The translations under genes and the position numbers were made by a program. From a bacterium (GTDB lineage Bacteria > Patescibacteriota > Patescibacteriia > UBA1558 > UBA10009), in NCBI GenBank assembly GCA_018672055.1, contig JABHGM010000001.1, positions 136,884-200,883 on the forward strand: DNA of 64,000 nt, written 5' to 3'. The notes under the pieces were generated by a model. That model ran no database searches and was not told the DNA's origin. It saw only the letters and a list, made by a program, of their open reading frames with translations. Below are positions 3,342 to 63,136 of the stretch, piece by piece. The first letter of the stretch is position 1. Each line of letters opens with the position of its first letter.

Positions 3342-3453
3342 AATAATTTAAATGAGAAATGTGTTTAGCCTTGACATTTCTCTGTTTTCTATTATAATAT
3401 CCCTAAATAACGAAATAGTGCTCAAATTTTAATTAATAATAAATACACAAGAT

Positions 3454-3909: not shown

Positions 3910-4009
3910 ATACCTTGACAAAACATAATATACAATATATAATGTTATATACATTATCATCTCTTAATTAAGATAGTAATGGAAATCTAATCAATCTAAC
4001 TGCAGAAAT

Positions 4010-4330
4010 ATGGCAGAAGAAGTAGATCACAAGTTTCTAGATTTCGTCGTAAAAGGATTAGTTGATAATCCAAAAGACGTCAAAATCGAAAGAACTATCG
4101 ATGAAATGGGTGTACTATTAACACTCAATATTAATCCAGCCGACATGGGACAAATAATTGGTCGCCAAGGTCAAACAGCAAGAGCTATCAGAACTCTTTT
4201 AAGAGTTGTTGGTGCTAAATCAAATGCTAGGGTTAATTTAAAAATTGTTGAACCTGAAGGTTCAAGAAAACCAGCTGAGACTAAGACCGAAGAGGTTGAT
4301 ACCAGCGCAGTAGATGATTTAAAATTATAA
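4010..4330 (+). CDS. KH-domain RNA-binding protein (YlqC/UPF0109-like)
   Basis: Carries the GxxG KH motif IGRQGQTARAIRTLLRVVG. Its position between rpsP and trmD is the conserved position for this protein. Confidence 0.75.
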   Translation: MAEEVDHKFLDFVVKGLVDNPKDVKIERTIDEMGVLLTLNINPADMGQIIGRQGQTARAIRTLLRVVGAKSNARVNLKIVEPEGSRKPAETKTEEVDTSAVDDLKL

Positions 4331-5869: not shown

Positions 5870-5987
5870 TTCTTCTCCTTATTTTTATGATTAATGTATT
5901 TATTTTTTAATTTACGTGAATAATATAGACTATCATTTAGGCCGCTTTATGTCAATCACCTGCTCTTTCTACTGGCTTTTTATACCC

Positions 5988-6016
5988 TTGACTTAATATA
6001 GGGTATAATATATAAT
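5988..6016 (+). promoter_or_regulatory. sigma70-like promoter, candidate rRNA operon promoter
   Basis: TTGACT (5988-5993), a 17-nt spacer, then TATAAT (6011-6016), about 390 nt upstream of the 16S 5' end. A boxA-like CTTTAAGCAA lies at about 6153. A 13-nt tandem repeat AATACTAACAATT occurs at 6053 and 6073. Confidence 0.35.
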
Positions 6017-6276
6017 CCTCATAGGTTCCAATAAGTCGAATTTTATAAATTAAATACTAACAATTTCAACAAAATACTAACAATTAGTTAATTTTGAACG
6101 AAAGACAGAGGTTTTTGAAAGACTAAAGGCTTAGAGACATCATATTTGATAATCTTTAAGCAAACAGTTGTCGAAACCCCCTGTTTTTTGTTCACTATAT
6201 AAATACGAACTATTTAGTCGCAGCACCAATTGCATATACTAAATATATGGATATTTATATAGTCCCCGGACTTTGA

Positions 6277-6313
6277 CAGCTGAAAAAGTAATAGGATTAA
6301 CATATGTTAATTC
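6277..6313 (+). other. 5' arm of the pre-16S processing stem
   Basis: CAGCTGAAAAAGTAATAGGATTAACATATGTTAATTCC is nearly perfectly complementary to 7960-7992. Confidence 0.6.
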
Positions 6314-6396
6314 CTTCAATTCCAAAGGTGAACTTTTTATAACTGTTCATCTTATTCTCCGATCTCTTTGGAGAATAGAAAAAATAAATGTTATAT

Positions 6397-7888
<1,492 letters not shown>

Positions 7889-7959
7889 TAGGGAGTATTT
7901 ACTCAGTCATCTTTTTTAAAGATGATCTTAGAGAGGTCGAATACATTTTAATGTATACG

Positions 7960-7992
7960 GGAATTAACATTAATCCTATTACTTTCTAGCTG
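7960..7992 (+). other. 3' arm of the pre-16S processing stem
   Basis: GGAATTAACATTAATCCTATTACTTTCTAGCTG is the reverse complement of the 5' flank at 6277-6313, the usual RNase III-type processing helix. Confidence 0.6.
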
Positions 7993-8000
7993 TTAAAGTG

Positions 8001-8027
8001 GCTGGGTTTTCAAGCCCAGCTTTTTTT
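8001..8027 (+). terminator. terminator-like hairpin between the 16S and the tRNA pair
   Basis: GCTGGG-ttttcaag-CCCAGC followed by TTTTTTT. Confidence 0.4.
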
Positions 8028-8044
8028 GTTATCATTTACCTATT

Positions 8045-8119
8045 GCCACGGTAGCTCAGTGGTAGAGCAGTGGACTGAAAATCCACGTGTCGGCGGTTCA
8101 ATTCCACCCCGTGGCACCA
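8045..8119 (+). tRNA. tRNA-Phe (GAA), CCA encoded
   Basis: GCCACGG acceptor stem, GTTCAATTCC T-loop, anticodon loop CTGAAAA. Confidence 0.9.
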
Positions 8120-8196
8120 GGGCGATTAGCTCAGTTGGTTAGAGCGCTACACTGATAATGTAGAGGTCGGAGGTTCAACTCCTCCATCGCCCACCA
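8120..8196 (+). tRNA. tRNA-Ile (GAT), CCA encoded, directly abutting tRNA-Phe
   Basis: GGGCGAT acceptor stem, anticodon loop CTGATAA, GGTTCAACTCC T-loop. Confidence 0.9.
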
Positions 8197-8202
8197 TAAA
8201 AG

Positions 8203-8226
8203 ACCGAATTTACTTTCGGTTTTTTA
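8203..8226 (+). terminator. rho-independent terminator after the tRNA pair
   Basis: ACCGAA-tttact-TTCGGT followed by TTTTTT. Confidence 0.55.
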
Positions 8227-8283
8227 TATTGACTAATATTTTATATTAAGCTAAGGTTATTCTAATATTTAAATGGAGGGCAT

Positions 8284-36126: not shown

Positions 36127-38397
36127 ATGGCAAGAAAAAAAAGAAGAAAATCAAAGAAAAAAAAGAAACAGTTACTTGAAGAAGAATACGAATCTGAGGG
36201 TACCCTAAATGGAGAGACAAAAAGGGGTATTTTTATTGTATTAATTCTAGTTATAGCTCTTTTAGTAATTCTCTCTTTATTCAATTTATCTGGTGAATTA
36301 GGCTTATATTTGAAAAATTTCTTAGGTATTATATTTGGCTGGGGCTTTTACTTTTTCCCAGTTATTTTATTACTTTTAGCATTTACTCTGCTTAATCCAG
36401 AAAGATACGAAGTAAGACCTAGTAACTATTTTGGTCTTTTTTTACTACTAGCTAGTCTCTTGGGTTTATTACAGATAATAAAGAGTGATCCTACAACATA
36501 TATATCTGGTTCTGGTGGTGGTTATCTAGGTTATGCTCTGGCATTTCCTTTAATCGGCTTGACTGGTATTTGGGCAACTTTAATAATATTGGTAGCTATT
36601 TTTTTAATATCCCTGTTAGTAACCTTTAACACATCTTTAAATACAATTTTAGGTAATTTTAATATTCTAAATTGGTTCAGAGGCAAAGTAAATCAAGCTG
36701 AAGAATATTACGAAGATGATGACGAAGAAGAGGAAGAAGAAATAGAAGAAGATGATGACGAAGAAGAACCCACTTTTAAAACTAAAAAAATGCCATTCTC
36801 TAAACAAAAAAGTAATGGCAAGATAAAAGAAATTCCCGAAGGTTTAAATGTTACTTTCTCGCATGGTAAAAGTCATAAAGTAGAAGTTCCTTTAAATCTA
36901 TTAGATAACAGAACATCAAAACCAACTAGTGTTGATATTAAAGCTAATTCTGAAAAAATTAAAGATACTTTAGATAATTTTGGTATTGAAGTTACTATGG
37001 GCGAAGTAAATACTGGTCCAACGGTTACTCAATTTACTTTAAAACCTTCAGAAGGAATTAGATTAAATCAAATTACTGGTTTACAAAATGACTTAGCTCT
37101 AGCTTTAGCTGCACATCCTATCCGTATTGAAGCTCCTATCCCGGGCAAATCATTAGTTGGTATAGAAATTCCAAATCAAAGTATTGCTTTAGTTAAATTA
37201 AGAGAAATTTTAACTAGCAATGAATTTAAAAAGAAAAAAGGTGCTTTACTATTTTCACTCGGTAAAGATGTGGCCGGACGTCCTTGGATCGGTGATCTAG
37301 ATAAAATGCCTCACTTACTTATTGCTGGAGCTACTGGTTCTGGTAAATCAGTTTGTATAAATAATATTATTGTTAGTCTACTCTATCAATACACCCCTGA
37401 AAATCTAAGATTAATAATGGTTGATCCTAAGCGTGTTGAACTTTCTACTTTTAATGGTATTCCTCATTTACTTACTCCTGTTATTACTGAGCCTGATAAA
37501 ACCATCAATGCTTTAAGATGGGCTATCAATGAAATGGATGAAAGATATAAATTATTCTCAGCTGTTGGTAAACGTAATATTGGTGCCTATAATTCATCTG
37601 TAATTACCAATAAATTACCATATATAGTTATTATAATAGATGAACTTGCTGACCTTATGGCTGTTGCTCCTCGTGATGTTGAAGCTGCCATTGTTAGACT
37701 AGCTCAAATGGCTAGAGCTACTGGTATTCACTTAATAGTTGCTACTCAAAGACCTTCTGTTAATGTTATTACAGGTTTAATTAAAGCTAATGTTACTTCA
37801 CGCATTGCTTTTGCTGTAGCCTCATCTGTTGATTCTAGAACAATTATTGATACTTCTGGTGCTGAAAAATTATTAGGTAAAGGTGATATGTTGTTTATCT
37901 CTGCTGAGCTATCTAAACCAAAACGTTTGCAATGTGCTTTCATTAGTGACGCTGAAATAGAAGGTGTAGTTGATTTCTGGTCAAAACAAGGCGAAGCAGA
38001 ATTCAAAGATAATATAACTGAAAAACAAACTAAAGTTAGTATGCCAGGTAGCGGAGGCTCAAGTGATGAGGATGAATTATTAGAAGAAGCTAAAGATGTA
38101 ATTATAAAAGCTGGTAAAGCATCTGCTTCACTTTTACAAAGAAGATTAAGAGTTGGTTACGCTAGAGCAGCACGTATGTTAGATCTTTTAGAAGAGCAAG
38201 GTATTGTTGGACCATCTGAAGGAGCTAAGCCTCGTGAAATATTAATAGATGATGATTATTTAGCAATACCAGTTGAAACAACTGAAAGCTATGTTAGTCC
38301 TGAACCTGAGTATATAGAATCAGAAGATACAGAAGAAGTAGAAGATGATGATACTGAAAACTTTGAAGAGGAGGATGAAGAAGAAAAGATAAATTGA
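36127..38397 (+). CDS. ftsK: DNA translocase FtsK/SpoIIIE
   Basis: N-terminal TM segments and an acidic linker, GATGSGKSVCINNII Walker A, IIIDELADLM Walker B, and a C-terminal gamma winged helix LLQRRLRVGYARAARMLDLLEEQGIV. Confidence 0.85.
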   Translation: MARKKRRKSKKKKKQLLEEEYESEGTLNGETKRGIFIVLILVIALLVILSLFNLSGELGLYLKNFLGIIFGWGFYFFPVILLLLAFTLLNPERYEVRPSNYFGLFLLLASLLGLLQIIKSDPTTYISGSGGGYLGYALAFPLIGLTGIWATLIILVAIFLISLLVTFNTSLNTILGNFNILNWFRGKVNQAEEYYEDDDEEEEEEIEEDDDEEEPTFKTKKMPFSKQKSNGKIKEIPEGLNVTFSHGKSHKVEVPLNLLDNRTSKPTSVDIKANSEKIKDTLDNFGIEVTMGEVNTGPTVTQFTLKPSEGIRLNQITGLQNDLALALAAHPIRIEAPIPGKSLVGIEIPNQSIALVKLREILTSNEFKKKKGALLFSLGKDVAGRPWIGDLDKMPHLLIAGATGSGKSVCINNIIVSLLYQYTPENLRLIMVDPKRVELSTFNGIPHLLTPVITEPDKTINALRWAINEMDERYKLFSAVGKRNIGAYNSSVITNKLPYIVIIIDELADLMAVAPRDVEAAIVRLAQMARATGIHLIVATQRPSVNVITGLIKANVTSRIAFAVASSVDSRTIIDTSGAEKLLGKGDMLFISAELSKPKRLQCAFISDAEIEGVVDFWSKQGEAEFKDNITEKQTKVSMPGSGGSSDEDELLEEAKDVIIKAGKASASLLQRRLRVGYARAARMLDLLEEQGIVGPSEGAKPREILIDDDYLAIPVETTESYVSPEPEYIESEDTEEVEDDDTENFEEEDEEEKIN

Positions 38398-44536: not shown

Positions 44537-45880
44537 ATGTTAAACATCGTATTAATCATTCTATTCTACCTATTATTCGCCTATTTAAGCTCAAAAAACG
44601 TTAAATATGGCCTCTTTATGGTAACTGCGTTACTTCCATCATATTTGGTTAGATTTAACGTTTTTAACATACCAACTACACTTTTAGAAGGTATGATATA
44701 TATTCTATTTATCATTTGGCTATTTAAAATGAAGAAAGAATATAGTCTTACCTTTAACCCACTTAAGTGGTTTAAATCTAAAAAAGAATTATTTAATCCA
44801 GTACCTAATATATTAAAATTACCTTTAATTCTCTTTTTAGTAGCAGCTACTATCTCCGTATTTGTATCACCTAACTTTGAATCTGCTCTAGGTTTATGGA
44901 AAGCATATTTTATTGATGCCCTATTATATTTCATAATATTTATTTATACTATTAAATCTAAAATTGATATACAAAATATTATCAGAGTTTTAGGTTTAAC
45001 TGTTATTGTAATTGGTTTATTTGCTATATATCAAAAAATAACTGGCAATTTAATTCCTAACCCTTTTTGGGCAGACGAAAGTACTAGACGCATAACAACA
45101 TTTTTTGGTTATCCCAATGCTAATGCTTTATTTATATCACCTATACTTCTTTTAACTTTAATTAATTTAGTTAAAGACAAAAAAAAGTATTTATATCAAA
45201 TACTAAATATTTTAATCTTAATACTTGGCTTTCTAACTGTGCTTTGGGCAGAATCAACAGGAGCCTTACTTGGTATCCTAGCTGGTTTAATAACAATATT
45301 TATTTTCACTAAAAAAACTAGACTTATAACTCTTACTTTAATTGCATTTGTTTTAATTGTTTCATTATTTATACCGGGAGTTACCTCAAAGATAGAAAGT
45401 TCATATATTTCCATAAATGAAACTCATCTTTCTGCATCACCAACTGATTTACAACTAAGAACAAGCCAGTGGCGTGAAACATATGAGCTTTTAAAAACAA
45501 AACCTATCTTAGGTGCTGGCTTAGCTGGGTATCAAACATTAGTTGAGCCATATCATATAAATAAACATATTGAAATCTATTTATATCCACATAACTTCTT
45601 TCTAAACTTTTATGTTGAGATTGGTCTACTAGGATTAATTAGTATTTGCTGGCTTCTTATTATATACTACAAGCTATCATATAAGTCAGAATATTCTATT
45701 TATTCCATAATCTTAAGTTCAGTAATGATTACTATTCTAGTACATGGTTTAGTAGATGTACCATATTTAAAAAATGACTTAGCAATATTATTTTGGATTA
45801 TCTTTGGCTTAACAATCAGTATATATAATACACGGAGAGGTGCCGGAGTGGTTGAACGGGCTGCTCTCGAAAAGCAGTAG
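44537..45880 (+). CDS. O-antigen ligase/polymerase-like (Wzy_C family) polytopic membrane protein
   Basis: About 12 TM helices with a large extracytoplasmic loop near the C-terminal third, as in Wzy/WaaL proteins. The last ~15 codons overlap tRNA-Ser. Confidence 0.5.
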   Translation: MLNIVLIILFYLLFAYLSSKNVKYGLFMVTALLPSYLVRFNVFNIPTTLLEGMIYILFIIWLFKMKKEYSLTFNPLKWFKSKKELFNPVPNILKLPLILFLVAATISVFVSPNFESALGLWKAYFIDALLYFIIFIYTIKSKIDIQNIIRVLGLTVIVIGLFAIYQKITGNLIPNPFWADESTRRITTFFGYPNANALFISPILLLTLINLVKDKKKYLYQILNILILILGFLTVLWAESTGALLGILAGLITIFIFTKKTRLITLTLIAFVLIVSLFIPGVTSKIESSYISINETHLSASPTDLQLRTSQWRETYELLKTKPILGAGLAGYQTLVEPYHINKHIEIYLYPHNFFLNFYVEIGLLGLISICWLLIIYYKLSYKSEYSIYSIILSSVMITILVHGLVDVPYLKNDLAILFWIIFGLTISIYNTRRGAGVVERAALEKQ

Positions 45881-45923
45881 ACTTTTACTAGTCACGGGGG
45901 TTCGAATCCCTCCCTCTCCGCCA
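45834..45923 (+). tRNA. tRNA-Ser (CGA) with a long variable arm, CCA encoded
   Basis: GGAGAGG acceptor stem, anticodon loop CTCGAAA, a long extra arm, GGTTCGAATCC T-loop. Confidence 0.9.
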
Positions 45924-52450: not shown

Positions 52451-52864
52451 ATGTTTGAAAAACTATACAAACAGTTAATAATTCGGGCATTATTCTTTGC
52501 CCTATTTTTGTATTTGGTAATACCTTTTAATTTACAAGCTTCCCCTGCTGGTGATATTGCTACTCAAATATTAGAAGATACAGCTGTTGAAGCTAAATTA
52601 ATTAATTCAGCAGACAATGCTTTAAATATCTTTGAAATCTCTGGCTTTGTAATTAATATAGTTTTAGGATTTGTAGGTATAATATTTCTAGTCCTTATAA
52701 TTGCTGGTGGCTATATGTGGATGACTGCAGGAGGTAATGATGAAAAAGTAACTAAAGGTAAATCTCTTTTAACTCAATCAATTATAGCTTTAGCTGTTAT
52801 TCTAAGCGCTTTCCTATTAACCAACTTTGTTATAATAAGATTAATGACTAATCTATGGGGTTAA
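52451..52864 (+). CDS. VirB2/TrbC-like pilin-family paralog 4
   Basis: Core GGYMWMTAGGNDEKVTKGKSLLTQSIIALAVILSAF. Confidence 0.55.
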   Translation: MFEKLYKQLIIRALFFALFLYLVIPFNLQASPAGDIATQILEDTAVEAKLINSADNALNIFEISGFVINIVLGFVGIIFLVLIIAGGYMWMTAGGNDEKVTKGKSLLTQSIIALAVILSAFLLTNFVIIRLMTNLWG

Positions 52865-53526
52865 TTAAAAAAAACTTATTTTTAATTCTAATACTATGTT
52901 TTTTAATTATTCCTTTTTATACTCAAGCTGAAGCTGCTTGTCCAAAAAGTCTTAGTATTCAAGAATGTGTTAAATGGGGTCTAGAACAAACTAGCGCTGA
53001 AGCAGGCTATACATTTAATGAAAATCTTGATTCTCAAAGTATTTCAGAAACTGTAGGTAATATTATTTCAAATATTTTAACCTTTTTAGGTGCTTTAGTC
53101 TTGATAATGATTATTACGGCTGGTTTTCAATGGTTAACTGCCCAAGGCGATGAAGAGAAGCTAAACACTGCTAAATCTAGACTGAAGAATGCATTAATTG
53201 GTTTATTAATAATTGTAGCTGCATTTGCTATTACTACATTTGTAACTAGTAATCTAAAAAATATTATTGATGATGCTACAATACCTGATAATCCTGCTAA
53301 TTATATATGCTCTAATTATGATTATGATGTCTGTATTGATAATGTTGACAGAGCTTGTGGTTATTGGATTCCTGATCAAGGATGCTATCCAAACCCTTTT
53401 GACTGTGATTTACGATATCCTTCAGATTGTGAAATACCTGATCCTGATACAGGCCATGATGTTTGTTTGGGTGAAGGCGGTAACTGTATAATAACGCCCC
53501 AAGGCGATAGTTGTTATTGTAATTAA
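52855..53526 (+). CDS. VirB2/TrbC-like pilin-family paralog 5, with a Cys-rich C-terminal module
   Basis: Core AGFQWLTAQGDEEKLNTAKSRLKNALIGLLIIVAAF, then an ~85-aa tail with 12 Cys (CSNYDYDVCIDNVDRACGYW...CYCN). Overlaps paralog 4 by 10 nt. Confidence 0.55.
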   Translation: MGLIKKNLFLILILCFLIIPFYTQAEAACPKSLSIQECVKWGLEQTSAEAGYTFNENLDSQSISETVGNIISNILTFLGALVLIMIITAGFQWLTAQGDEEKLNTAKSRLKNALIGLLIIVAAFAITTFVTSNLKNIIDDATIPDNPANYICSNYDYDVCIDNVDRACGYWIPDQGCYPNPFDCDLRYPSDCEIPDPDTGHDVCLGEGGNCIITPQGDSCYCN

Positions 53527-53527
53527 T

Positions 53528-54073
53528 ATGAATAAAAAATATATAATTCTGTTTCTAACCTTAATAATCTTACTTATTCCTGTTTTAACATACTCCGCAA
53601 ATATTACAGATATAATAGAAGGGTTAGATAAAACAGCAGAAAAATCACTTTTAATAGATCCTAATGAAGAGGCTACTACAATATATGATATGATTGGACG
53701 TATTCTATTTTTTACTTTAAGCCTTCTTGGTATTATTTTCTTAGGTTTAATTATATTTGGTGGTATTGGTTGGTTAACAGCTGCTGGCAATGAAGAAAAG
53801 ATAACTAAAGCTAAAGGTTTGATGTCTAATGCTTTAATTGGTTTAATAATAATAATTGCTGCATATACTATAGCTAACTTTGTAATATTTACTTTAGCTG
53901 ATAAAATAACTGAGGGCAATGATTCATTATGTATAGAAGCTTCAGGAGAATGCCAAAACCATGCATTGGGTGCCACAGATTGCACAATTAATGGTTCTCC
54001 TGGTACTTATGCTTCTAATTATTGTGGAAGTCAATCAAATGATTCTCTTTATCGTTGCTGTATAGCTAACTAA
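53528..54073 (+). CDS. VirB2/TrbC-like pilin-family paralog 6, with a Cys-rich C-terminal module
   Basis: Core GGIGWLTAAGNEEKITKAKGLMSNALIGLIIIIAAY, then a ~60-aa tail with 8 Cys. Starts 1 nt after paralog 5. Confidence 0.55.
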   Translation: MNKKYIILFLTLIILLIPVLTYSANITDIIEGLDKTAEKSLLIDPNEEATTIYDMIGRILFFTLSLLGIIFLGLIIFGGIGWLTAAGNEEKITKAKGLMSNALIGLIIIIAAYTIANFVIFTLADKITEGNDSLCIEASGECQNHALGATDCTINGSPGTYASNYCGSQSNDSLYRCCIAN

Positions 54074-54079
54074 TAATTT

Positions 54080-54589
54080 ATGTTTTTAAATTTAAAAAAA
54101 TCTTTATTTATTCTAATAATAAGTTTTTTAATACTAAGTCCTTCTTTATTATTCGCTCAATCTCCAGAGGATCCTAGTAATCAACCTAATTATACTTATA
54201 AGCAAATTTGTAAATGGGGTGATAATTTAACTGATTGCTTAGAAGAAAATTATAATACTATTACTGGGACTGAGAATGATGATTTTGAAAAAGTAACTTC
54301 TGCAAGTTTATCTACAAAAATAGGAATTATCATTTCATACGTTTTAGCATTTTTAGGAGTTATTTTCTTAGTTTTAATTGTAATTTCTGGATTTCAATGG
54401 TTAACAGCTGGTGGGAATGAAGAAACTGTAACTACTTCTAGAAAAAGAATTATTAATGCTGTTGTTGGCCTCATTATTATTCTCTCTGCCTACGTTATTA
54501 CTGCTTTTGTTACTGATAGGATAGAAAGATCTATTGATAAAACAAATACTGTTAGTATTAATTTGCCTAGTGACTATTTATCTATTTAA
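54080..54589 (+). CDS. VirB2/TrbC-like pilin-family paralog 7
   Basis: Core SGFQWLTAGGNEETVTTSRKRIINAVVGLIIILSAY. Confidence 0.55.
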   Translation: MFLNLKKSLFILIISFLILSPSLLFAQSPEDPSNQPNYTYKQICKWGDNLTDCLEENYNTITGTENDDFEKVTSASLSTKIGIIISYVLAFLGVIFLVLIVISGFQWLTAGGNEETVTTSRKRIINAVVGLIIILSAYVITAFVTDRIERSIDKTNTVSINLPSDYLSI

Positions 54590-54604
54590 TATTTAATTAT
54601 TTAT

Positions 54605-54976
54605 ATGACTAAAAAAATTATAATTTCATTACTAATACTAATTATCTCTAGTTTTTTAATAATCCCCGCTCTAGCTCAAACAAATATAAATACCAATCTT
54701 GAAGCAGCTGGAGAAGGTGCTAAGTATAATATAGACGTTGATGATAATACTATACCTGAAATAATTGGTAAAGTAGTGGCTACTCTACTGGCTTTTGTCA
54801 CCTCAATTTTTATGATGATGGTTGTTTTCTCTGGCGTTCAATGGATGGTTGCTGGAGGTAATGAAGAAAAAATTACTAAAGCTCGTGGTAGATTAATAAG
54901 TAGTATTATTGGCGTAGGTATAACTGCTGCTGCTTATTTCATAACCTGGTTAATTACTGAAACTTTACTAAAATAA
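54605..54976 (+). CDS. VirB2/TrbC-like pilin-family paralog 8
   Basis: Core SGVQWMVAGGNEEKITKARGRLISSIIGVGITAAAY. Confidence 0.55.
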   Translation: MTKKIIISLLILIISSFLIIPALAQTNINTNLEAAGEGAKYNIDVDDNTIPEIIGKVVATLLAFVTSIFMMMVVFSGVQWMVAGGNEEKITKARGRLISSIIGVGITAAAYFITWLITETLLK

Positions 54977-54979
54977 AAT

Positions 54980-55648
54980 ATGAAATCATTTCTTTTAATA
55001 ATTGCTGTTTGTTTCTTAATCCTAGCACCCTTAACTGTGTCTAATGCTTTAAATTTAGGCCAAGAAACATATTTAGAAAGTTTAGCTGGTACAGCCGGCT
55101 ATCAAATTGATAGTGTTCAATCTAATACCTATCTTGATTCGACAATTGGTAAACTACTAGCAAGTATATTTACTTTAGTTGGTATTTCTTTCTTATCACT
55201 TATCATTGTTTCTGGATTTCAATGGATAAACGCTCATGGTAATGAAGAAAGCGCTAAAAAAGCTAAAGATCGAATAATCCATGCTACTATTGGATTAATT
55301 ATTATTGCTTCTTCCTATTTAATCTCCTTCTTCATATATAATTCAATAAATTCCTCAATTACTGGCGAGGTTAATAACTTTGTTCCAGAACCAGGCTTAG
55401 AATGTATAGATAATACAAATTGTATTGGGCATGAAAATGGACCTTACTGTAACTATAATCAAGCTACTGGTTATTGTGGTGGGTGTACAGATGACGATGA
55501 TTGTTCAAGCCCTACTCCTGAATGTGTACGTCCTCTTATTGGCCCTAGCTCATGTCATGAATGCGTAATAGATGCAGATTGTTCTGATAATTTTGGTCCC
55601 AGTTTTGTTTGTGGTAATTTCGAATGTATAGAAAATAATGATTTTTAA
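54980..55648 (+). CDS. VirB2/TrbC-like pilin-family paralog 9, with a Cys-rich C-terminal module
   Basis: Core SGFQWINAHGNEESAKKAKDRIIHATIGLIIIASSY, then a ~100-aa tail with 13 Cys, including the repeated C-x-E-C...D-x-C motifs CTDDDDCSSPTPEC and CHECVIDADC. Confidence 0.55.
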   Translation: MKSFLLIIAVCFLILAPLTVSNALNLGQETYLESLAGTAGYQIDSVQSNTYLDSTIGKLLASIFTLVGISFLSLIIVSGFQWINAHGNEESAKKAKDRIIHATIGLIIIASSYLISFFIYNSINSSITGEVNNFVPEPGLECIDNTNCIGHENGPYCNYNQATGYCGGCTDDDDCSSPTPECVRPLIGPSSCHECVIDADCSDNFGPSFVCGNFECIENNDF

Positions 55649-55653
55649 TTAAT

Positions 55654-56631
55654 ATGATAAAAAAATATAAAAAAATAATATTAAGCTCTCTAATCCTACT
55701 TTTTTTAATACTGGGAATAAATGTTTTAGCACAAGGTGGTTTTCAACAAGAGTTAATAAATAATATTGCTAGTACTACTGAAATTGTTGGTCAAGGACCA
55801 GGTTACAATACAAACGCTCAAGGTGAGGATTTTTTTGGAGGTATTTTAATTAAAATATTTGGTTATGGAATTAGTTTCTTAGGCGTTTTCTTCATGTTAC
55901 TTATTGTCTACTCTGGATTTCAATGGATGTTTTCTAGTGGTAATGAAGAAAAGGTTACTCAAGCTAAAACTAGAATTACTCAAGCAGTGACAGGTTTAGT
56001 TATTGTCTTAGGTGCTTTTATAATCTCCTATGCTATATTCTCATTCTTGACTACAGAATATTTAGAAACCCCTTCCTCTGGCATTCAAGCTCCTGATGGT
56101 TATCAAGAGCAAATAGCTTGTAGTAATTCTAATAGTGATACGCCTCCTGAATGCGCTGATAGAGGAACTAGAATATATTGTTCTAGCTCTGGTAATTGTG
56201 TTGAATGTTTAGACGACGCACGTTGTGCAGAAGCTCCATTTGAACCGCTCGGCTTAACATCTTGCGACCCAACTTGGAATGTTTGTACTTTCGATTTAGA
56301 TCATACATGTGCTGAAATTACCAACGCTGGCTTATGCATATCTAATGAAAGTTGTAATTGGGCACTGACACCGTCTAACCCAACATGGGAGACAGGTGTA
56401 TGTGTTAATTCAAATGAATATAATTGCACAACTGGACAATGCCCTCAAGATAGGCCATATTGCATAAATAATAATCAACCAGAAGGAGAATATAGCTGTC
56501 ATGAATGCAGCCCTGGTATAGATGCTTCATGTGGTCTTTTAAAAAACTGCACACAGCCATTTCTTGAAGGTGGTGAAGGTATCAATGAAGATGATTATCA
56601 TCTCTACATTTGTACAATTTTTGGTTTTTAA
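55654..56631 (+). CDS. VirB2/TrbC-like pilin-family paralog 10, with a long (~185-aa) Cys-rich C-terminal module
   Basis: Core SGFQWMFSSGNEEKVTQAKTRITQAVTGLVIVLGAF, then a tail with about 24 Cys including CVECLDDARC and CHECSPGIDASC, the same motif seen in paralog 9. Confidence 0.55.
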   Translation: MIKKYKKIILSSLILLFLILGINVLAQGGFQQELINNIASTTEIVGQGPGYNTNAQGEDFFGGILIKIFGYGISFLGVFFMLLIVYSGFQWMFSSGNEEKVTQAKTRITQAVTGLVIVLGAFIISYAIFSFLTTEYLETPSSGIQAPDGYQEQIACSNSNSDTPPECADRGTRIYCSSSGNCVECLDDARCAEAPFEPLGLTSCDPTWNVCTFDLDHTCAEITNAGLCISNESCNWALTPSNPTWETGVCVNSNEYNCTTGQCPQDRPYCINNNQPEGEYSCHECSPGIDASCGLLKNCTQPFLEGGEGINEDDYHLYICTIFGF

Positions 56632-56643
56632 ATAATAAAACAT

Positions 56644-57051
56644 ATGAAAAAAACAATATTAAAAATTTCTAGCCTTTCCCTTATTATAGGATTAGGCTTT
56701 ACAAAAATAGCTTTGGCTATGCCAACGTTAAATCCTTTAGCCAGAATGAAACACACTGCTGATGTTATTGGTCTGTCCACTGTAAATGTTCATCCAGCTG
56801 AAGTAGCAGCTAATATTATTGCCATCATACTCGGATTAGTAGGTATTATATTTTTTGTGATGATACTTTTTTCTGGTTATGAGCTTATGACTTCTGGTGG
56901 TAACGAAGAAGTAGTGGGTAGAGCTAAAAAAAGATTACAATATGCAATTATTGGAATTGTAGTAATCTCTCTTTCATACATAATAACTATTTATGTTTCT
57001 GAATTAATAAACAGAGCTACATGTGAAGGTTATTATTGTATTAATGAATAA
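56644..57051 (+). CDS. VirB2/TrbC-like pilin-family paralog 11
   Basis: Core SGYELMTSGGNEEVVGRAKKRLQYAIIGIVVISLSY, with the conserved Trp replaced, and a short C-terminal CEGYYCINE. A hairpin and T-run (AGACTGACTTCAT/ATGAAGTCAGTCT) follow the stop. Confidence 0.5.
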   Translation: MKKTILKISSLSLIIGLGFTKIALAMPTLNPLARMKHTADVIGLSTVNVHPAEVAANIIAIILGLVGIIFFVMILFSGYELMTSGGNEEVVGRAKKRLQYAIIGIVVISLSYIITIYVSELINRATCEGYYCINE

Positions 57052-57125: not shown

Positions 57126-59045
57126 ATGATTAATTATATTAAAGAAAAACAAATTAAAATATTAATAATATCTATTATTACCTATATTACTATTTTTTCT
57201 TTAATTTGCTACTGGAAGTACCTTAATTTTGGCTATAATGGCTTAGATTTGACGATATTTAACCAAGTTTTCTTTAATTCGGTACATGGTGACTTTTTTA
57301 GGTTTACTATCCATCCTGGGCTATATTTAGGCGATCACTTTACGCCTATTATTCTATTACTTCTGCCATTATATTACTTTTTTCAAAGCCCAATTACTCT
57401 GCTTATTCTACAAACTATTATCCTAGCTTTATCTGCTTGGCCAATATATTTAATTGCTAAAAAATATTTACCTTCTGCCTGGCCACTTTTTATTTCCTTA
57501 GCCTGGCTTTTTAATCCATTCGTACAAAATGTAAATCTTTTTGAATTTCATTTACTTCCTTTTGCAATATTTTTAATATTCTGGACGTTTTATTTTTATT
57601 TAAAAAATAACTTTAACTTATTTCTTCTATTCTCTCTTCTGAGCATGTTGGTTAGAGAAGATGTGGCTTTAGTAATTATTATGATGGCTGTACTGGCTCT
57701 TTTTGAAAAAAGAAAATGGTTTTGGTTTATTATTCCAGGGGTAATAAGTATTATCTATTTCTTAACCTCTATGTCTATAATCGGACATTTTACTCCTGAC
57801 GGACAATACAAATTTCTTTACTACTACAATTTTTTAGGTAACAGCTTTAAAGAAATAATTATAACTGCTTTAACTAAACCTTGGCTTATTATTAAACAAA
57901 TTGCATCATGGCATAACTTATTTTTTACTCTAACGCTTTTTATGCCCTTTGCTTATCTATTAAGACTTAAATATTTGATACCAGCTTTTTTAATCTACCT
58001 CCAACTAATCATTGGGAGTGCTAATGACTCAGTTTTGGTCCTTAGTATGCACTATGTTTCTTTATTACTGCCCCCAATATTTATTGCTTTTATTATGTTT
58101 TTGAATAGATTCCTATTAACTGATAACTATTTAAAATTAAAAAGCCTTCTTCAATTAAATAATTCATTATTTATATTAATTCTTTCAACAATTGTATTGT
58201 ATAGTTCTTTAACTATGGGCCCTCTGCCCTCTGTTGCTAAAAATTTAATAAGCCCCGGTTGGTCAGAAGAAAAACTATTAATTAAAAAAGAATTAGTTAA
58301 AAATATTTCACCTAGTGATAATTTAGGAGCTACTTATGAATTTCTATCACCCATGTCGTCAAGGCATAATCTCTATTCAATGCATTATGCGTTCTTAGGT
58401 AAATTACAATTTTCTAATACAGATTATGAGCTACCATTAGACGTTGATACATTGCTTATTGATTTTAATGATTTTATATACTATGAACTACAATACCCTG
58501 ACGAGCCAACTTGGCAATCATATTATCAAAAAGGTGATGATAGTATAAGGAAGTTAATTGAAGAACGTAGTTTTGGGATAACTAAAATTAATGACTTATA
58601 TGTTTTAATGAAAAAAGATGTAAATAATAATATTAAGTTATATGAAATAGTTGACGATACTAAGTTTGATGAAGTGGATTATAAAAAAATAGGTGAAAAT
58701 ATTTCATTCCTGGGTTATGAAAATAATTTAGATCATATTTCACTATATTTTAAATCAAATTCTAAACTTAATGAAGACTATCAAATAAGATTAATTGGTA
58801 AAAATAATAATGAAGAAGTTTTTAATAGATATTTACCACTAGCCTACGGCTTATACCCCACCAGAGAGTGGGGAAAAGATGAAATTATTAAAATTAATTA
58901 TTATTTGAATTTAAAAGATGTATCTTCTTTAGAATTAAATTTAGTTAATCTTCAAGGCTACTACACTTTAAATAACCTAGGAACCATGATAAATAAAATA
59001 ACCCAAGAAAATACCCTGGGTTATGTTAAAATCGATTTAGATTAA
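57126..59045 (+). CDS. large polytopic membrane protein with a C-terminal extracytoplasmic domain; GT-C-fold glycosyltransferase-like (DUF2079-like) candidate
   Basis: About 11 TM helices in the first 360 aa. After TM1 comes a long first external loop with Asp/His residues (GYNGLDLTIFNQVFFNSVHGDFFRFTIHPGLYLGDHF) as in GT-C enzymes, then a ~280-aa soluble C-terminal domain. Confidence 0.3.
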   Translation: MINYIKEKQIKILIISIITYITIFSLICYWKYLNFGYNGLDLTIFNQVFFNSVHGDFFRFTIHPGLYLGDHFTPIILLLLPLYYFFQSPITLLILQTIILALSAWPIYLIAKKYLPSAWPLFISLAWLFNPFVQNVNLFEFHLLPFAIFLIFWTFYFYLKNNFNLFLLFSLLSMLVREDVALVIIMMAVLALFEKRKWFWFIIPGVISIIYFLTSMSIIGHFTPDGQYKFLYYYNFLGNSFKEIIITALTKPWLIIKQIASWHNLFFTLTLFMPFAYLLRLKYLIPAFLIYLQLIIGSANDSVLVLSMHYVSLLLPPIFIAFIMFLNRFLLTDNYLKLKSLLQLNNSLFILILSTIVLYSSLTMGPLPSVAKNLISPGWSEEKLLIKKELVKNISPSDNLGATYEFLSPMSSRHNLYSMHYAFLGKLQFSNTDYELPLDVDTLLIDFNDFIYYELQYPDEPTWQSYYQKGDDSIRKLIEERSFGITKINDLYVLMKKDVNNNIKLYEIVDDTKFDEVDYKKIGENISFLGYENNLDHISLYFKSNSKLNEDYQIRLIGKNNNEEVFNRYLPLAYGLYPTREWGKDEIIKINYYLNLKDVSSLELNLVNLQGYYTLNNLGTMINKITQENTLGYVKIDLD

Positions 59046-60022
59046 ATCTTATCCCTAAACTTCAACCACTTGCTCATAATCTTTGGTGCTAAATAGATAG
59101 CAATAAACGCTACTAATAATCCAGCTAGCAGATCTATTAAGTAATGCCATCTTAAATAAAGAGTAGAAAGCCAAACAGACGTTACTAATGGAATATGTAG
59201 ATAATATAAATACTTAAGGTATTTATTTTTTCTTAAATATTTCCAAGCAAAGTATAACCAAATAAAAGTTACTCCAAAGTGAAGACTTGGAAAACAATGC
59301 AAAGCCCTATTTTCAATCAAATATTCCATTACCATAGTATTGGGAGTATAGTATGGCTCGCCATTTAAAGTAATAAGTTCAGTTGTTAAAACCTCCTTTT
59401 GAGCTAGTAATGGACCATCACAAGGCACTAAAACATACCCTGCTAGTCCTAAAAAATTAGTTATTATGACAGTCAATAAAAGAGTTTCAAAAACTCTTTT
59501 ACTTTTAAAAATAGAATATATTATTGGGTTCACAAAATAAAACACAAAATATAAAGTGTAAGCAAAAGCAAACCAACTAGTTAGGCCTGGAGTAATTAAT
59601 TTTTCAAATAAAACTGCAATGTCGTTACCAAATAATAGTGCTCTATCAATGCTTATTAATACTTCATCATAATTATTTGAATTAAAAAATCTTGTTATAT
59701 CATGAATTGAATCGTATATGTATAAAAAAATAAAAAAAGGAATTATTTGAATAATAAAATCCTTAGTAGCAATTAAGGCCTCTTTAAATATTTCTAATAT
59801 CTTTATATCTTCTTTAAATCTAGTAAACAATATAAGAGTTAGTTTAATTAAAGAAAAGCCTAAAATTATATAAATAAATAAAATAATTCCACTAATCTCA
59901 TTAATCGAATTAATTGGCAAATTAAAAACTTTAAACGCTAAGAGAGTTAATGTTAAACAAATAAAACTAACCCAGAATACTGGGTTAAAAAAATTTAATA
60001 TAAACTGCTTGTATTTTTCCAT
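59042..60022 (-). CDS. PAP2-superfamily-like membrane phosphatase/phosphotransferase candidate
   Basis: Polytopic. CFPSLHFGVT resembles the PSGH motif, and LRWHYLIDLLAG resembles the SRxxxxxHxxxD motif. Confidence 0.35.
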   Translation of the reverse strand: MEKYKQFILNFFNPVFWVSFICLTLTLLAFKVFNLPINSINEISGIILFIYIILGFSLIKLTLILFTRFKEDIKILEIFKEALIATKDFIIQIIPFFIFLYIYDSIHDITRFFNSNNYDEVLISIDRALLFGNDIAVLFEKLITPGLTSWFAFAYTLYFVFYFVNPIIYSIFKSKRVFETLLLTVIITNFLGLAGYVLVPCDGPLLAQKEVLTTELITLNGEPYYTPNTMVMEYLIENRALHCFPSLHFGVTFIWLYFAWKYLRKNKYLKYLYYLHIPLVTSVWLSTLYLRWHYLIDLLAGLLVAFIAIYLAPKIMSKWLKFRDKI

Positions 60023-60029
60023 TCTTAAG

Positions 60030-61055
60030 CTACTTACTAGCCATCCTATGTTTAAAATAATCTACCCAAGGTATAAGAGTGGGGTCTTGTTTATTAAGCT
60101 TAGTTAATTTAAAAGATAATAAAGCACCAAAAGTAAGCATGCTAAATACTTGCTCTTCTTTTGTTCCATTCAACTTAATATCAGAATATTTTATCTTATA
60201 TTTATTCAATACTTCTTTCATTACTTTATATCTCTTTTGATTTCTAGGTAAATACATGTCTGAGTTTACTAAAACAAAGTGTAATAACTTAGTATTTGCT
60301 TTAGGGAAGGTTAAGCCTTCTAACAAATGATGGTTTAATTCTGGAATATGGTAATAATATGCTAACTGTTTTGAAGATTCGTTTGTTTGATTAGTTATAA
60401 TATGTCCATTACCCTCTAAAAATTCTGAGGTAACATATATTATTATTTTGTCTTTTAATTTCTTAGCTAAATTATCTACTTCTTTAGTTTTTGTATATTT
60501 TTTATAACTCTTAACTAAATATTTAGCTAAATTATCTACTTCACTATCTGTTATTTTTAAAGCTCCTGATTTTTTTAATATTTGTAAAACAGCTCCGGTG
60601 GTATAGCTAGTTCCCATCCTTGGTTGACCGCTAGGATTATCTATTGGATCAAATAAATATATTGGTAGCTTATATTTCTTAGCTAAGCTGGCTAACTTGC
60701 CTCCCGTACATATGGCTAGAGCTTTAAGTCCTCTCTTCTTTGCTTCGTGTGCTCCGCTTATTACCTCTTCTGTACTGCCCGAATAACTTGATAAAATAAC
60801 TAATGTTTTTTTATCAACATACTTTGGTAATTTATAACCTCTAATTTGTGTAATAGGATATTTTAATCTATCAAAAAATAAAGCATTTATTAAATCTACA
60901 CCTAATTGAGAACCACCCATTCCAACAACTAATACCTTATTTATATCACTAAAATTCTTAGGTAACTTTAATAATTTTGCCTCATTATAGCTTGCTAATA
61001 ATTGTTTACCGCTAAGCTCAATTGACTCTAAATATGTCTCATCTGCTTTATTCAT
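60030..61055 (-). CDS. SIS-domain bifunctional phosphoglucose/phosphomannose isomerase-like protein
   Basis: VLVVGMGGSQLGVDL matches the GMGGS motif of archaeal-type PGI/PMI, and the protein has two SIS-like halves. Confidence 0.55.
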   Translation of the reverse strand: MNKADETYLESIELSGKQLLASYNEAKLLKLPKNFSDINKVLVVGMGGSQLGVDLINALFFDRLKYPITQIRGYKLPKYVDKKTLVILSSYSGSTEEVISGAHEAKKRGLKALAICTGGKLASLAKKYKLPIYLFDPIDNPSGQPRMGTSYTTGAVLQILKKSGALKITDSEVDNLAKYLVKSYKKYTKTKEVDNLAKKLKDKIIIYVTSEFLEGNGHIITNQTNESSKQLAYYYHIPELNHHLLEGLTFPKANTKLLHFVLVNSDMYLPRNQKRYKVMKEVLNKYKIKYSDIKLNGTKEEQVFSMLTFGALLSFKLTKLNKQDPTLIPWVDYFKHRMASK

Positions 61056-61125: not shown

Positions 61126-61830
61126 ATGTCAGGACATTCTAAATGGTCAAAAATTAAAAGAAAAAAAGGCGTTAATGATGCTAGGCGTTCAGCTAACTTT
61201 ACCAAACTAGCTAATGCTATTTCTCTTGCTGCACGCGGAGGTAGCGATCCAGACACCAATTTTAAACTTAAAATGGCTATTGATAAGGCCAAGTCTAATT
61301 CTCTGCCAAAAGATAATATTGATAGAGCTATAAAGCGTGGTACTGGTGAAATAGAAGGTCAACAAATTGAAGAGCTAACTTATGAAGGTTATGGACCTGA
61401 AGGTGTAGCTATTATCGTAGAAATTGTTACTGATAATAAAAATAGATCCTCTCAAGAAGTAAAGCATATTCTTTCCAAATATGGTGGTAAGTTAGCAGGA
61501 CCAGGGAGTGTTATGTGGCAATTTGATTACAAAGGTGTGGTTACTCTTGAATTAGATAAATTAGATGATGATACTCAATTGCTTTTAATTGATGCCGGGG
61601 CTGAAGATATTAAAACAGATGGCGGCATTACTCTTATAACTCAAACTGATAATTTAAATATTTTAAAGAATAAAGTTGTTGAACTTAAGCTACCATTAAT
61701 TGATCATATTTTAGAGTACGTACCTAAAGAAACTGTTAAACCTACAAATGAAAATTCTCTTCTTAAATTATTTGATGAACTTGATGAATGTGACGATGTA
61801 AATAATTTCTTTTCTAACGCTGATTTATGA
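61126..61830 (+). CDS. yebC: YebC/PmpR-family DNA-binding transcriptional regulator
   Basis: MSGHSKWSKIKRKKGVNDARRSANFTKLANAISLAARGGSDPDTNFKL is the family hallmark N-terminus. Confidence 0.9.
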   Translation: MSGHSKWSKIKRKKGVNDARRSANFTKLANAISLAARGGSDPDTNFKLKMAIDKAKSNSLPKDNIDRAIKRGTGEIEGQQIEELTYEGYGPEGVAIIVEIVTDNKNRSSQEVKHILSKYGGKLAGPGSVMWQFDYKGVVTLELDKLDDDTQLLLIDAGAEDIKTDGGITLITQTDNLNILKNKVVELKLPLIDHILEYVPKETVKPTNENSLLKLFDELDECDDVNNFFSNADL

Positions 61831-62315
61831 CTTCTAAAAAACAAATTATTTTAGGTATTGATCCAGGTCTAGCTGATACTGGATTTGGTGTCATTTCTAA
61901 AGAAGGTCAAACTTTAACTATGCTCGATTGTGGTAGTATAAAAACAAAACCACAAACTGAGTTTATGGATAGGTTAAAAATTATAAATTTTGAACTTAAG
62001 AAAATTATTAAAAAGCATAAACCAGATATAGCTGCTGTTGAAGAGCTGTTTTTTTGTAAAAACGCTAAGACTGCTCTTTTGGTTGGCCAAGCTCGTGGTG
62101 TTTGCTTACTAACCATAGCTGAAGCTAAAATCGAATTTACTGAATTTACTCCACTTCAAATTAAACAAGCTATAACCGGGTATGGTAAAGCTGATAAAAA
62201 CCAAGTAGGACAAATGGTAAAGTTTTTTTTAAATTTAAAAGAAGTCCCTAAACCTGATGATGCAGCTGACGCTCTAGGCGCTGCCATAACTTGTGCTAAT
62301 ACTAAGAAATTTTAA
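61827..62315 (+). CDS. ruvC: crossover junction endodeoxyribonuclease RuvC
   Basis: ILGIDPGLADTGFGVI then EELFF and DAADALGAAI give the catalytic Asp/Glu/Asp/Asp set. Overlaps yebC by 4 nt. Confidence 0.85.
   Translation: MTSKKQIILGIDPGLADTGFGVISKEGQTLTMLDCGSIKTKPQTEFMDRLKIINFELKKIIKKHKPDIAAVEELFFCKNAKTALLVGQARGVCLLTIAEAKIEFTEFTPLQIKQAITGYGKADKNQVGQMVKFFLNLKEVPKPDDAADALGAAITCANTKKF
62298..62315 (+). repeat. 18-bp direct repeat, copy 1 (AATACTAAGAAATTTTAA)
   Basis: Identical to 63119-63136. Copy 1 supplies the last codons and the TAA stop of ruvC. Confidence 0.8.
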
Positions 62316-62329
62316 TATATTTAATAATA

Positions 62330-62358
62330 TTGACATATATTAGTATATATAATATACT
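62330..62358 (+). promoter_or_regulatory. sigma70-like promoter of the cassette gene
   Basis: TTGACA (62330-62335), a 17-nt spacer, TATACT (62353-62358). An alternative TATAAT lies at 62348-62353. Confidence 0.4.
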
Positions 62359-62402
62359 GCTATATTCAACTGAACATTTCACAAACAAATCAAGGAGAGA
62401 AA

Positions 62403-63059
62403 ATGAAGAATTTATTAATTCTTGCACTAACTGTATGGCCAGCCATGGCTCAAGCTTCTGAAGGAGTCAATCAATTTTGGTTCGGTATCATTTATATTGT
62501 AGGCGCTATACTCATAATCATTACCATATGCCTTGGTATAGCGTATAGATCAGTTAAAAAGGATCTCAAAGAAAAAAATGGACTCTACAATTACTTAAAA
62601 ACAAAAAACGAACGTTGCGATAGGCTGCTAGAAGGGCGCTTAGAGTTTGTTGAAAGACAAAGTTATGACGACTTATTTAGGGAACATCCTAATTTCTTAT
62701 TAACAGACTTGGCAGGAATTCTTTCTTGCGCAGACAGAGATATAGAAATAGTAGAACGTGGCTTACTTAAAATAATATTGTCTTCATTGGCTGAAAATAA
62801 AATAGTACGTCAAGGTGAACTAATATATACTGAAGCTGTGATCCAAATTGGGCGATGTGAAGGTATAGTTTTTCTACTTAAACATGATGAGGGTGTGGTA
62901 CGAATTAAAACTAATAAACGCGTCTACTATCTTTTGCCAAGACTGGGCTTCATTATTGAAGAAGAAGTTGCTTCATATACTAAATTTAATAATTTAAAAA
63001 ATATCTATCCTTTTTCTGGGGAAAAAGGCAAGCCTGCAAGAATAGATTTAAAAAAATAA
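62403..63059 (+). CDS. hypothetical exported/membrane-anchored protein (cassette gene)
   Basis: Classical signal peptide MKNLLILALTVWPAMAQA, then TM FWFGIIYIVGAILIIITICLGIAY, then a ~150-aa soluble domain with no recognisable motifs. It has its own promoter and terminator. Confidence 0.4.
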   Translation: MKNLLILALTVWPAMAQASEGVNQFWFGIIYIVGAILIIITICLGIAYRSVKKDLKEKNGLYNYLKTKNERCDRLLEGRLEFVERQSYDDLFREHPNFLLTDLAGILSCADRDIEIVERGLLKIILSSLAENKIVRQGELIYTEAVIQIGRCEGIVFLLKHDEGVVRIKTNKRVYYLLPRLGFIIEEEVASYTKFNNLKNIYPFSGEKGKPARIDLKK

Positions 63060-63093
63060 AAATCTCAATAAAACTTGAGAAATTATATTTAAG

Positions 63094-63118
63094 GGCAGAT
63101 TTTATATCTGCCTTTTTT
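63094..63118 (+). terminator. rho-independent terminator
   Basis: GGCAGAT-tttat-ATCTGCC followed by TTTTTT. Confidence 0.5.
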
Positions 63119-63136
63119 AATACTAAGAAATTTTAA
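63119..63136 (+). repeat. 18-bp direct repeat, copy 2 (AATACTAAGAAATTTTAA)
   Basis: Perfect copy of 62298-62315. It contains the TAG stop codon (minus strand) of tyrS. Confidence 0.8.

Follow-up and report, generated by a model that had tools for sequence, protein, structure and literature searches.

The subject of this study is a single small gene that separates ruvC from tyrS in a 64,000-nucleotide stretch of Patescibacteriota DNA (assembly GCA_018672055.1, contig JABHGM010000001.1, positions 136,884 to 200,883), referred to throughout as the window. This open reading frame (ORF) of 218 amino acids, ORF218, lies with its own putative expression signals between two copies of a perfect direct repeat, and each copy coincides with the 3' end of one of the two convergent neighbouring genes. 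We describe it as a probable foreign insertion which duplicated the former overlap of its neighbours. The locus is composed of the following features, given in window coordinates:

61827-62315, plus strand: ruvC, intact, 162 amino acids, its last 19 nucleotides being the left repeat copy
62297-62315: left repeat copy, TAATACTAAGAAATTTTAA, of which 62302-62315 corresponds to the ancestral 14-bp ruvC/tyrS overlap and retains a relic tyrS stop (CTA)
62316-63117, plus strand: insert of 802 bp, with promoter, Shine-Dalgarno sequence, ORF218 and two hairpins, missing from the sister lineages
62330-62358, plus strand: sigma-70-type promoter-like site, TTGACA-17-TATACT, agreeing with the consensus at 11 of 12 positions, the top-scoring site of the 3 kb scanned
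62392-62399, plus strand: strong Shine-Dalgarno sequence AAGGAGAG, 3 nucleotides before the ATG, its AAGGAG core 5 nucleotides before it
62403-63059, plus strand: ORF218, 218 amino acids, with a frame-specific coding signal
63063-63080: weak hairpin TCTCAA-N6-TTGAGA, followed on the minus strand by a T-rich run
63091-63117, plus strand: predicted intrinsic terminator of ORF218, a 10-bp stem AAGGGCAGAU/AUCUGCCUU(U) with a U-run that touches the right repeat copy
63118-63136: right repeat copy, of which 63123-63136 is the tyrS 3' end and 63118-63122 a non-coding relic of ruvC codons
63123-64000, minus strand: 3' part of tyrS, with its stop (CTA on the plus strand) at 63123-63125, running past the window end

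The identity of both neighbours is well supported, RuvC by Pfam PF02075 (E=2e-50) and the NCBIfam RuvC equivalog model (213 bits against a cut-off of 163), and TyrS by NCBIfam TIGR00234 (219 bits), the full gene of 397 amino acids being available at positions 10721-11914 of L001. A first-pass annotation of the window had placed an 18-mer, AATACTAAGAAATTTTAA, at 62298-62315 and 63119-63136. It occurs exactly there, and neither strand of the window has a third perfect occurrence; the perfect direct repeat is in fact 19 bp long (TAATACTAAGAAATTTTAA, 62297-62315 and 63118-63136), which leaves 802 bp between the copies. When the repeat is extended by 7 nucleotides in the 3' direction, 24 of 26 positions match. 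The annotation held such a repeat to be unlikely by chance, and this is supported by simulation: when the 64-kb window was simulated 200 times with a first-order Markov model, only one run contained any exact direct repeat of at least 19 bp within 1.5 kb, a count taken without demanding that both copies fall on gene ends. The three other close direct repeats of at least 19 bp in the window are each tandem and of short period (36-99 bp). A scan of the window for direct repeats of at least 13 bp that run from boundary to boundary around a gene returned the ORF218 case and one low-complexity 13-mer only.

The junction is empty in two sister lineages. In L083, whose RuvC is 86% identical, ruvC (850-1338, plus strand) meets tyrS (starting at 1325, minus strand) with no gene between them, and the same overlapped arrangement is found in ten contigs of a second species (L084-L093; RuvC 80% and TyrS 84% identical), as in L084 itself with ruvC at 2417-2905 on the plus strand and tyrS at 2892-4085 on the minus strand. 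The convergent genes overlap by 14 bp in L083 and in the L084-type species, and the motif is single-copy in both (...TGTGC CAATACTAAAAAATTTTAA CAAATTTCC... in L083; ...TGTGC TAATACTAAGAGATTTTAA TATACTTTC... in L084), which is the empty site with one motif copy that had been predicted from the window. Deletion of 62316-63136 (821 bp, the insert and one repeat copy) yields a 240-bp alignment to L083 and L084 with 0 gaps, in agreement with the original proposal of a single-gene insertion with target duplication. The reconstructed junction restores the same RuvC and TyrS C-termini as those of L083 and L084, and the empty-site junction predicted for the window species reads …ACTTGTGC-TAATACTAAGAAATTTTAA-CAAATTTTCTC…. 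The opposite pattern, in which all relatives are occupied and the 18-mer is a common genomic repeat, was not observed: there are empty relatives, and the 18-mer is present only twice in the window.

The 14-bp overlap, CTAAGAAATTTTAA, extends from the tyrS stop to the ruvC stop and lies inside the 19-mer, the duplicated unit being the overlap plus 5 bp of ruvC. Because the repeat holds both stops in their overlapped form, with a relic tyrS stop in the left copy and non-coding ruvC bases in the right copy, it was the overlapped junction that was copied. RuvC of the window ends in ...ITCANTKKF*, the same as L083, and the functional TyrS tail is ...KFVKIS*. The earlier proposal that the repeat regenerates the 3' end of ruvC was correct in itself and too narrow in being limited to that gene, as the end of tyrS is regenerated too by way of the 14-bp overlap. 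The 19-mer carries the window lineage's own variants: two of its positions differ in L083 and one in L084. On the minus strand, the left copy and the following 7 nucleotides (62316-62322) encode KYIKIS*, a tyrS relic that is exactly how TyrS ends in the sister species L084 and is unlike the functional KFVKIS* of the window. This relic gives a weak hint that the duplicated segment may originally have been 26 bp or more, or alternatively that the left flank may have a different history; the 7-nucleotide extension is AT-rich, and its 5/7 match is near chance level.

The direction of change can be read from more distant relatives. The window, L083 and L084 are roughly equidistant from each other (78-80% DNA identity over yebC and ruvC, 73-79% over the 3' part of tyrS), and L003 is an outgroup (68-70% and 58-62%, respectively). 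Convergent ruvC and tyrS are separated by an 84-bp spacer of two terminator hairpins in the P0132 species (L102, L104, L105) and by a 152-bp terminator spacer in the P0145 species (L106). L003 harbours Na/Pi-cotransporter-like and PhoU-like genes between ruvC and tyrS (6501-8281), while L100 has tyrS followed by genes for a HAD hydrolase, PhoU and Na_Pi_cotrans (5202-7763), with no ruvC in the 4 kb fetched downstream of tyrS. ORF218 is not found in L003, L100 or the P0132 and P0145 species. The insertion is the derived state because the sister lineages are empty and the outgroups have spacers or unrelated genes. At the level of sequence, these alignments establish that the insertion is derived, that its boundaries are exact and that the duplicated segment is the former gene overlap.

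In the metagenome ERZ27237618 the window is 136884-200883 of k141_275804, a contig of 417 kb, and its proteins recur on contigs of up to 963 kb. Within the window species all 24 of the long contigs read, which come from independent samples, show the repeat-flanked arrangement, and no contig of the species that extends beyond ruvC lacks the insert. The 99%-variant strain L107 also carries the insert, with identical spacing. Contigs with ORF218 number 76 + 5 + 3, against 80 with RuvC, and in at least three metagenome-assembled genomes (MAGs) at NCBI the accession numbers of ORF218 and RuvC are consecutive. Variation of ORF218 within the species amounts to two single-residue variants, and the gene appears to be fixed. 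A metagenome scan for the ruvC 3'-end motif returned two contigs, both from the L084-type species, and no empty-site allele from within the window species. Two contigs from different assemblies, L108 (GCA_018651045.1 JABIET010000050.1) and L109 (ERZ4200990 NODE_203765), both stop exactly at window position 62250, within ruvC and 47 nucleotides upstream of the left repeat. These contig ends could reflect strain heterogeneity or a graph branch from 62251, possibly tied to the cassette boundary.

The description of the insert as a self-contained unit was borne out by its promoter (11 of 12 consensus positions), its 218-amino-acid ORF with a signal-peptide-like N-terminus and a predicted transmembrane (TM) helix, and its terminator. 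The terminator hairpin (63091-63115) has a folding energy of -13.2 kcal/mol and a folding z-score of -4.6 to -5.1, and none of 200 shuffles was as stable. ORF218 is probably expressed from its own promoter, judging from these signals, and possibly by read-through from yebC-ruvC too; the weaker hairpin at 63063-63080 is a possible terminator for tyrS. The codon log-likelihood of ORF218 is +0.18 bits per codon in frame and -0.33 to -1.17 in the other five frames, the coding score of reference genes being 0.37 +/- 0.13 with a minimum of 0.135, and the chance probability of 218 sense codons at its composition is about 8e-9. This frame-specific coding signal, together with the Shine-Dalgarno sequence, the promoter and the terminator, indicates that ORF218 is a real gene. 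A somewhat higher GC content had also been ascribed to the ORF. The difference is marginal for overall GC (0.339 in ORF218, against 0.331 in ruvC, 0.329 in yebC and 0.30 +/- 0.03 in the long genes of the window), but GC at third codon positions is mildly raised (0.248 against 0.174 +/- 0.042, about 1.8 standard deviations).

Nothing detectably similar to the insert was found in its flanks, elsewhere in the window or in any fetched locus, and blastn and tblastn searches with the insert and ORF218, covering the remainder of the window plus 95 loci, returned no paralog. Birth of the insert by tandem duplication or de novo from the flanks was considered and rejected, the alignments giving z=+1.1 for the tyrS 3' part and -1.1 for yebC/ruvC; in-register identity between insert and flanks past the repeat is 25/60 and 20/60.

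The N-terminus of ORF218 is signal-peptide-like (residues 1-18, with K2, a hydrophobic stretch at 4-15 and AMA|QA). One strong TM helix is predicted from hydropathy at about residues 25-48, and is followed by the basic stretch RSVKKDLKEK and then by a soluble domain of about 165 amino acids. ORF218 is probably a small inner-membrane protein with its soluble domain in the cytoplasm, according to this predicted topology. Searches against Pfam, NCBIfam, PHROGs and PADLOC gave no significant match, with no PHROG match at E < 0.06. A word-indexed search of 5.8 billion clusters returned ORF218 itself only, and an exhaustive HMMER search of 1.84 billion representatives returned itself and two spurious partial matches. 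These two candidates were rejected as homologs: P0126 is a repetitive protein with only a motif of about 20 amino acids in common, and P0127 is a 1,522-amino-acid multi-domain protein with a weak partial match, 30% identical over about 55 residues. Sequence searches of the PDB gave nothing credible. ORF218 is absent from phage records, plasmid records and the 2.9 million viral contigs of IMG/VR, and among about 15 billion proteins it was not found outside the ruvC/tyrS locus. The single-sequence AlphaFold2 models, with predicted local distance difference test (pLDDT) scores of 51.6 for the full length and 39.7 for the soluble domain, are too poor for fold searching. By these searches ORF218 qualifies as a genuine orphan.

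Some features of known mobile elements are present at the locus. A target-site duplication can be recognized, 19 bp long, single-copy in L083 and L084 and atypically long; the perfect 19-bp direct repeats resemble attL and attR; and an autonomous promoter, ORF and terminator sit between conserved genes in the manner of a moron. Other hallmarks were sought and are missing. The left end compared with the reverse-complemented right end scores 7.5, against 8.9 +/- 1.3 for shuffles (p = 0.93), giving no sign of terminal inverted repeats (TIRs), and ORF218 holds no transposase domain in Pfam or NCBIfam. No second copy of the unit was found in the window, the fetched loci or the protein databases. 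Between 62251 and 63200 there is no GTTRRRY core of an attC site, and RYYYAAC occurs once only, in the 5' untranslated region. No dif-like site with fewer than 8 mismatches was found and none is located at the locus, no tRNA or tmRNA lies at or beside the insert, and no Rfam family matches it. Neither the insert nor the approximately 74 kb inspected of the roughly 0.96-Mb genome encodes an integrase, transposase or recombinase of such an element. The 19-mer is absent from the IMG/VR viral contigs, and there is no prophage context: yebC-ruvC lies on one side and tyrS on the other, in core housekeeping DNA some 7 kb away from dnaA/dnaN. The initial suggestion of an integron-like or tyrosine-recombinase cassette was not supported, as the unit has no attC and has a promoter of its own, no integrase is encoded in it or in the inspected 74 kb, and no second copy was found.

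Our preferred explanation, to which we assign a probability of roughly 80%, is that a foreign 802-bp unit was inserted into the 14-bp ruvC/tyrS overlap and that host sequence was duplicated in the process. The ancestral state would have been a short terminator spacer between convergent ruvC and tyrS. This spacer would have been lost in the ancestor of the window species, L083 and L084, giving the 14-bp overlap, and the 802-bp insertion with its 19-bp duplication (possibly 26 bp originally) would have followed in the window lineage. One copy would then end ruvC and the other tyrS, with the exact 3' ends kept and the genes un-overlapped. We lean slightly towards the duplication having been copied from host sequence at the moment of insertion, since the 19-mer has the lineage's own variants and the unit has been seen nowhere else. 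Candidate routes would be fill-in of a staggered break, or repair by replication or template switching, either of which could leave a product like a target-site duplication with no recognisable transposon. Selection probably helped, in that insertions lacking the overlap duplication would damage tyrS or ruvC.

Several points weigh against this explanation. The 19-bp duplication exceeds those of most known transposases, no enzyme or end structure for a 19-nucleotide stagger was identified, and the mechanism of duplication is deduced from the end product alone. Only about 74 kb of the approximately 0.96-Mb genome was inspected for recombinases. The sister lineages are known only from short contigs (at most 4.3 kb) and are about 20% diverged, and intermediates, for example a tandem duplication with no insert, could exist unseen. 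The last residues of RuvC and TyrS also vary among relatives (RuvC of L003 ends in ...CANST*), which makes the argument that selection required the duplication plausible and not strict.

Other histories could lead to the same arrangement. In site-specific or Campbell-type integration, a small circle made of the insert and the 19-mer as attP would have recombined with an identical attB at the ruvC/tyrS junction, catalysed by a tyrosine or serine recombinase encoded elsewhere or by RecA acting on very short homology. The repeats would then be attL and attR, and the circular junction would read …CTGCCTTTTTT-TAATACTAAGAAATTTTAA-TATATTTAAT…, also given as …ATCTGCCTTTTTT-TAATACTAAGAAATTTTAA-TATATTTAATAAT…. 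Perfect repeats of 19 bp are within the typical size range of att cores, the 3' ends of both target genes are regenerated, and the remaining 0.9 Mb or so of the genome lay outside the recombinase search. We nevertheless consider this route unlikely, as no integrase is found in the insert or the inspected 74 kb, the target is not a tRNA or tmRNA, and attC core motifs and dif-like sites are lacking. Moreover, 2.9 million viral contigs, the phage and plasmid collections and about 15 billion proteins gave no sign of the unit, ORF218 or the 19-mer beyond this locus, and so no evidence of mobility, and the incoming core would need to match perfectly the form in which this lineage has a sequence that is different in the sister species. 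A two-step history is also unlikely. Slippage would first have produced a tandem duplication of 19-26 bp that un-overlapped the genes, and illegitimate recombination would later have placed the insert between the copies. Its end product is the same as the one observed, the 24/26 extended match and the KYIKIS* relic hint at a segment longer than 19 bp, and junction length is labile among relatives (-14, 84, 152 and about 2200 bp). Two events would however be needed in the same 5-nucleotide window, no relative has been seen with the tandem duplication and no insert, and the match of the AT-rich extension (5 of 7) is close to chance.

That the gene was ancestral, and that repeat-mediated recombination deleted the cassette independently in the sister lineages to leave the 14-bp overlap, is highly improbable. 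Short direct repeats do mediate precise deletions, genomes of the candidate phyla radiation (CPR) are streamlined, and L003 and L100 carry genes near the junction; but the repeats would still need an earlier duplicative insertion, and the same precise deletion would have to occur twice in a near-trichotomy, or at least one extra event would be required. Outgroups show spacers or unrelated genes (NaPi transporter, PhoU) and never ORF218, of which no homolog is found in any other lineage. To a chance repeat or an assembly chimera we give practically no credence, even though DNA of 30% GC is rich in short repeats and the sequence comes from metagenome assembly. The 19-bp length was reached in a single simulation of the 200, and the copies fall on the ends of two genes and on what in relatives is the single-copy junction. 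A chimera would have to have formed again in all 24 long contigs, at least three MAGs at NCBI and the 99%-variant strain, around a repeat that is shorter than the k-mers of assemblers. A further and distinctly improbable reading is that the unit is a minimal cassette, recombinase-less or mobilised in trans, which enters CPR chromosomes at convergent 3' ends with a 19-26-bp duplication. We retain it because a duplication of this length suits none of the characterised transposase families, the known hallmarks are all missing, and the genome and the clade are mostly unsampled.

Small lineage-specific gene insertions with target duplication are a known kind of event, and the target in this case is unusually informative. 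On present evidence the locus does not represent a new class of mobile element or a new biological system. It provides a base-pair-resolved case of gene gain by a streamlined genome with overlapping genes of essential type, in which neither neighbour was damaged and the newcomer brought its own promoter and terminator. The gain of this orphan is dated to a single lineage, with one species that has it and two sister lineages that do not, which makes the locus useful for studying the origins of CPR orphan genes. If the minimal-cassette reading were true, it would mean a new route by which ultra-small genomes gain orphan genes while packed essential genes remain undisrupted, and the unit would be the first visible example of such a cassette.

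The rest of the window is made up of core housekeeping genes, among them those for SMC, TrmD, PolA, UvrB, RuvA, RpoB/C, FtsK and RecA as well as pgi and yebC, and dnaN/dnaA are located about 5-7 kb beyond tyrS. Gene content is CPR-like, with T4SS_pilin arrays and 30% GC, and the best named relatives are "Patescibacteria group", "Ca. Komeilibacteria" and "Parcubacteria". Paralogous T4SS_pilin (PF18895) genes, about ten in tandem, lie at 52855-57051 and upstream from about 51.4 kb, and 16-mers are shared within the array at 54384/55209 and 55211/55912. Between the last T4SS_pilin gene and pgi, genes for a DUF2079 protein (639 amino acids) and a PAP2 phosphatase occupy 57126-60022. L084, L088 and L089 lack both genes and have only 79 bp between pilin and pgi, which include a terminator hairpin (543-621 in L084); no direct repeat was seen to flank this segment, and more distant relatives have a large membrane protein adjoining pgi, so the difference may be a deletion in L084. 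The three in-gene tandem repeats of the window have exact copies of 19 bp or more. One, with a period of 99 bp (3778-3896), falls in the C-terminal extension of the gene for ribosomal protein S16 (3454-3909); another is an acidic repeat of 36 bp (36712-36766) at the beginning of ftsK (36127-38397); the third, inside pgi, has a period of 60 bp (60463-60542). A tRNA-Ser(CGA) gene at 45834-45923 overlaps 47 nucleotides of the 3' end of a Wzy_C-type ORF (44537-45880), which points either to an ORF called too long or to a true overlap of gene and tRNA. On the far side of tyrS, the sister species has an IS481-family transposase-like gene in L085 (2524-3312, minus strand; NCBIfam 194 bits against a cut-off of 224, Pfam rve), 17 nucleotides upstream of tyrS. 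Partial genes of this type occur in the same species at L084 4102-4347 and in L086, L087, L090 and L091, and the window species has a DUF4202/HD-like gene at that position.

In the full-text literature searched, no precedent was found for an insertion that duplicates the overlap of convergent genes, nor for orphan cassettes of Patescibacteria bounded by repeats, an absence that is not proof of novelty. Comparison with known systems shows partial likeness to several. The unit resembles insertion sequences (IS) and miniature inverted-repeat transposable elements in being a discrete segment between perfect direct copies of host sequence, of which relatives have just one at their empty site, and an IS481-family transposase does adjoin tyrS in the sister species. 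Characterised IS families usually make target duplications of 2-14 bp, a range which the 19 bp observed here exceed, and the unit differs further by having no TIRs, no transposase and one copy only. With phages and islands that integrate at tRNA or tmRNA genes it shares direct repeats of about 19 bp and the preservation of the target 3' end, here for two genes at once; it is unlike them in having no integrase, a size of 0.8 kb with one gene, a protein-gene overlap as its target and no mobile form that could be found. With integron cassettes the unit has in common its size of about 0.8 kb, its single gene and a structured 3' end, but it has its own promoter, lacks attC, has an ordinary terminator for a hairpin and has no attI or IntI nearby. 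The phage moron, in the concept of Hendrix and Juhala, is an autonomous unit of promoter, gene and terminator set between two genes, and flanking duplications are not part of the definition of classical morons. Although the ORF218 unit stands between chromosomal housekeeping genes and has no PHROG or viral matches, it is like a moron in its sigma-70-like promoter, its one ORF, its own terminator, its position between conserved genes and its mildly shifted codon-position composition.

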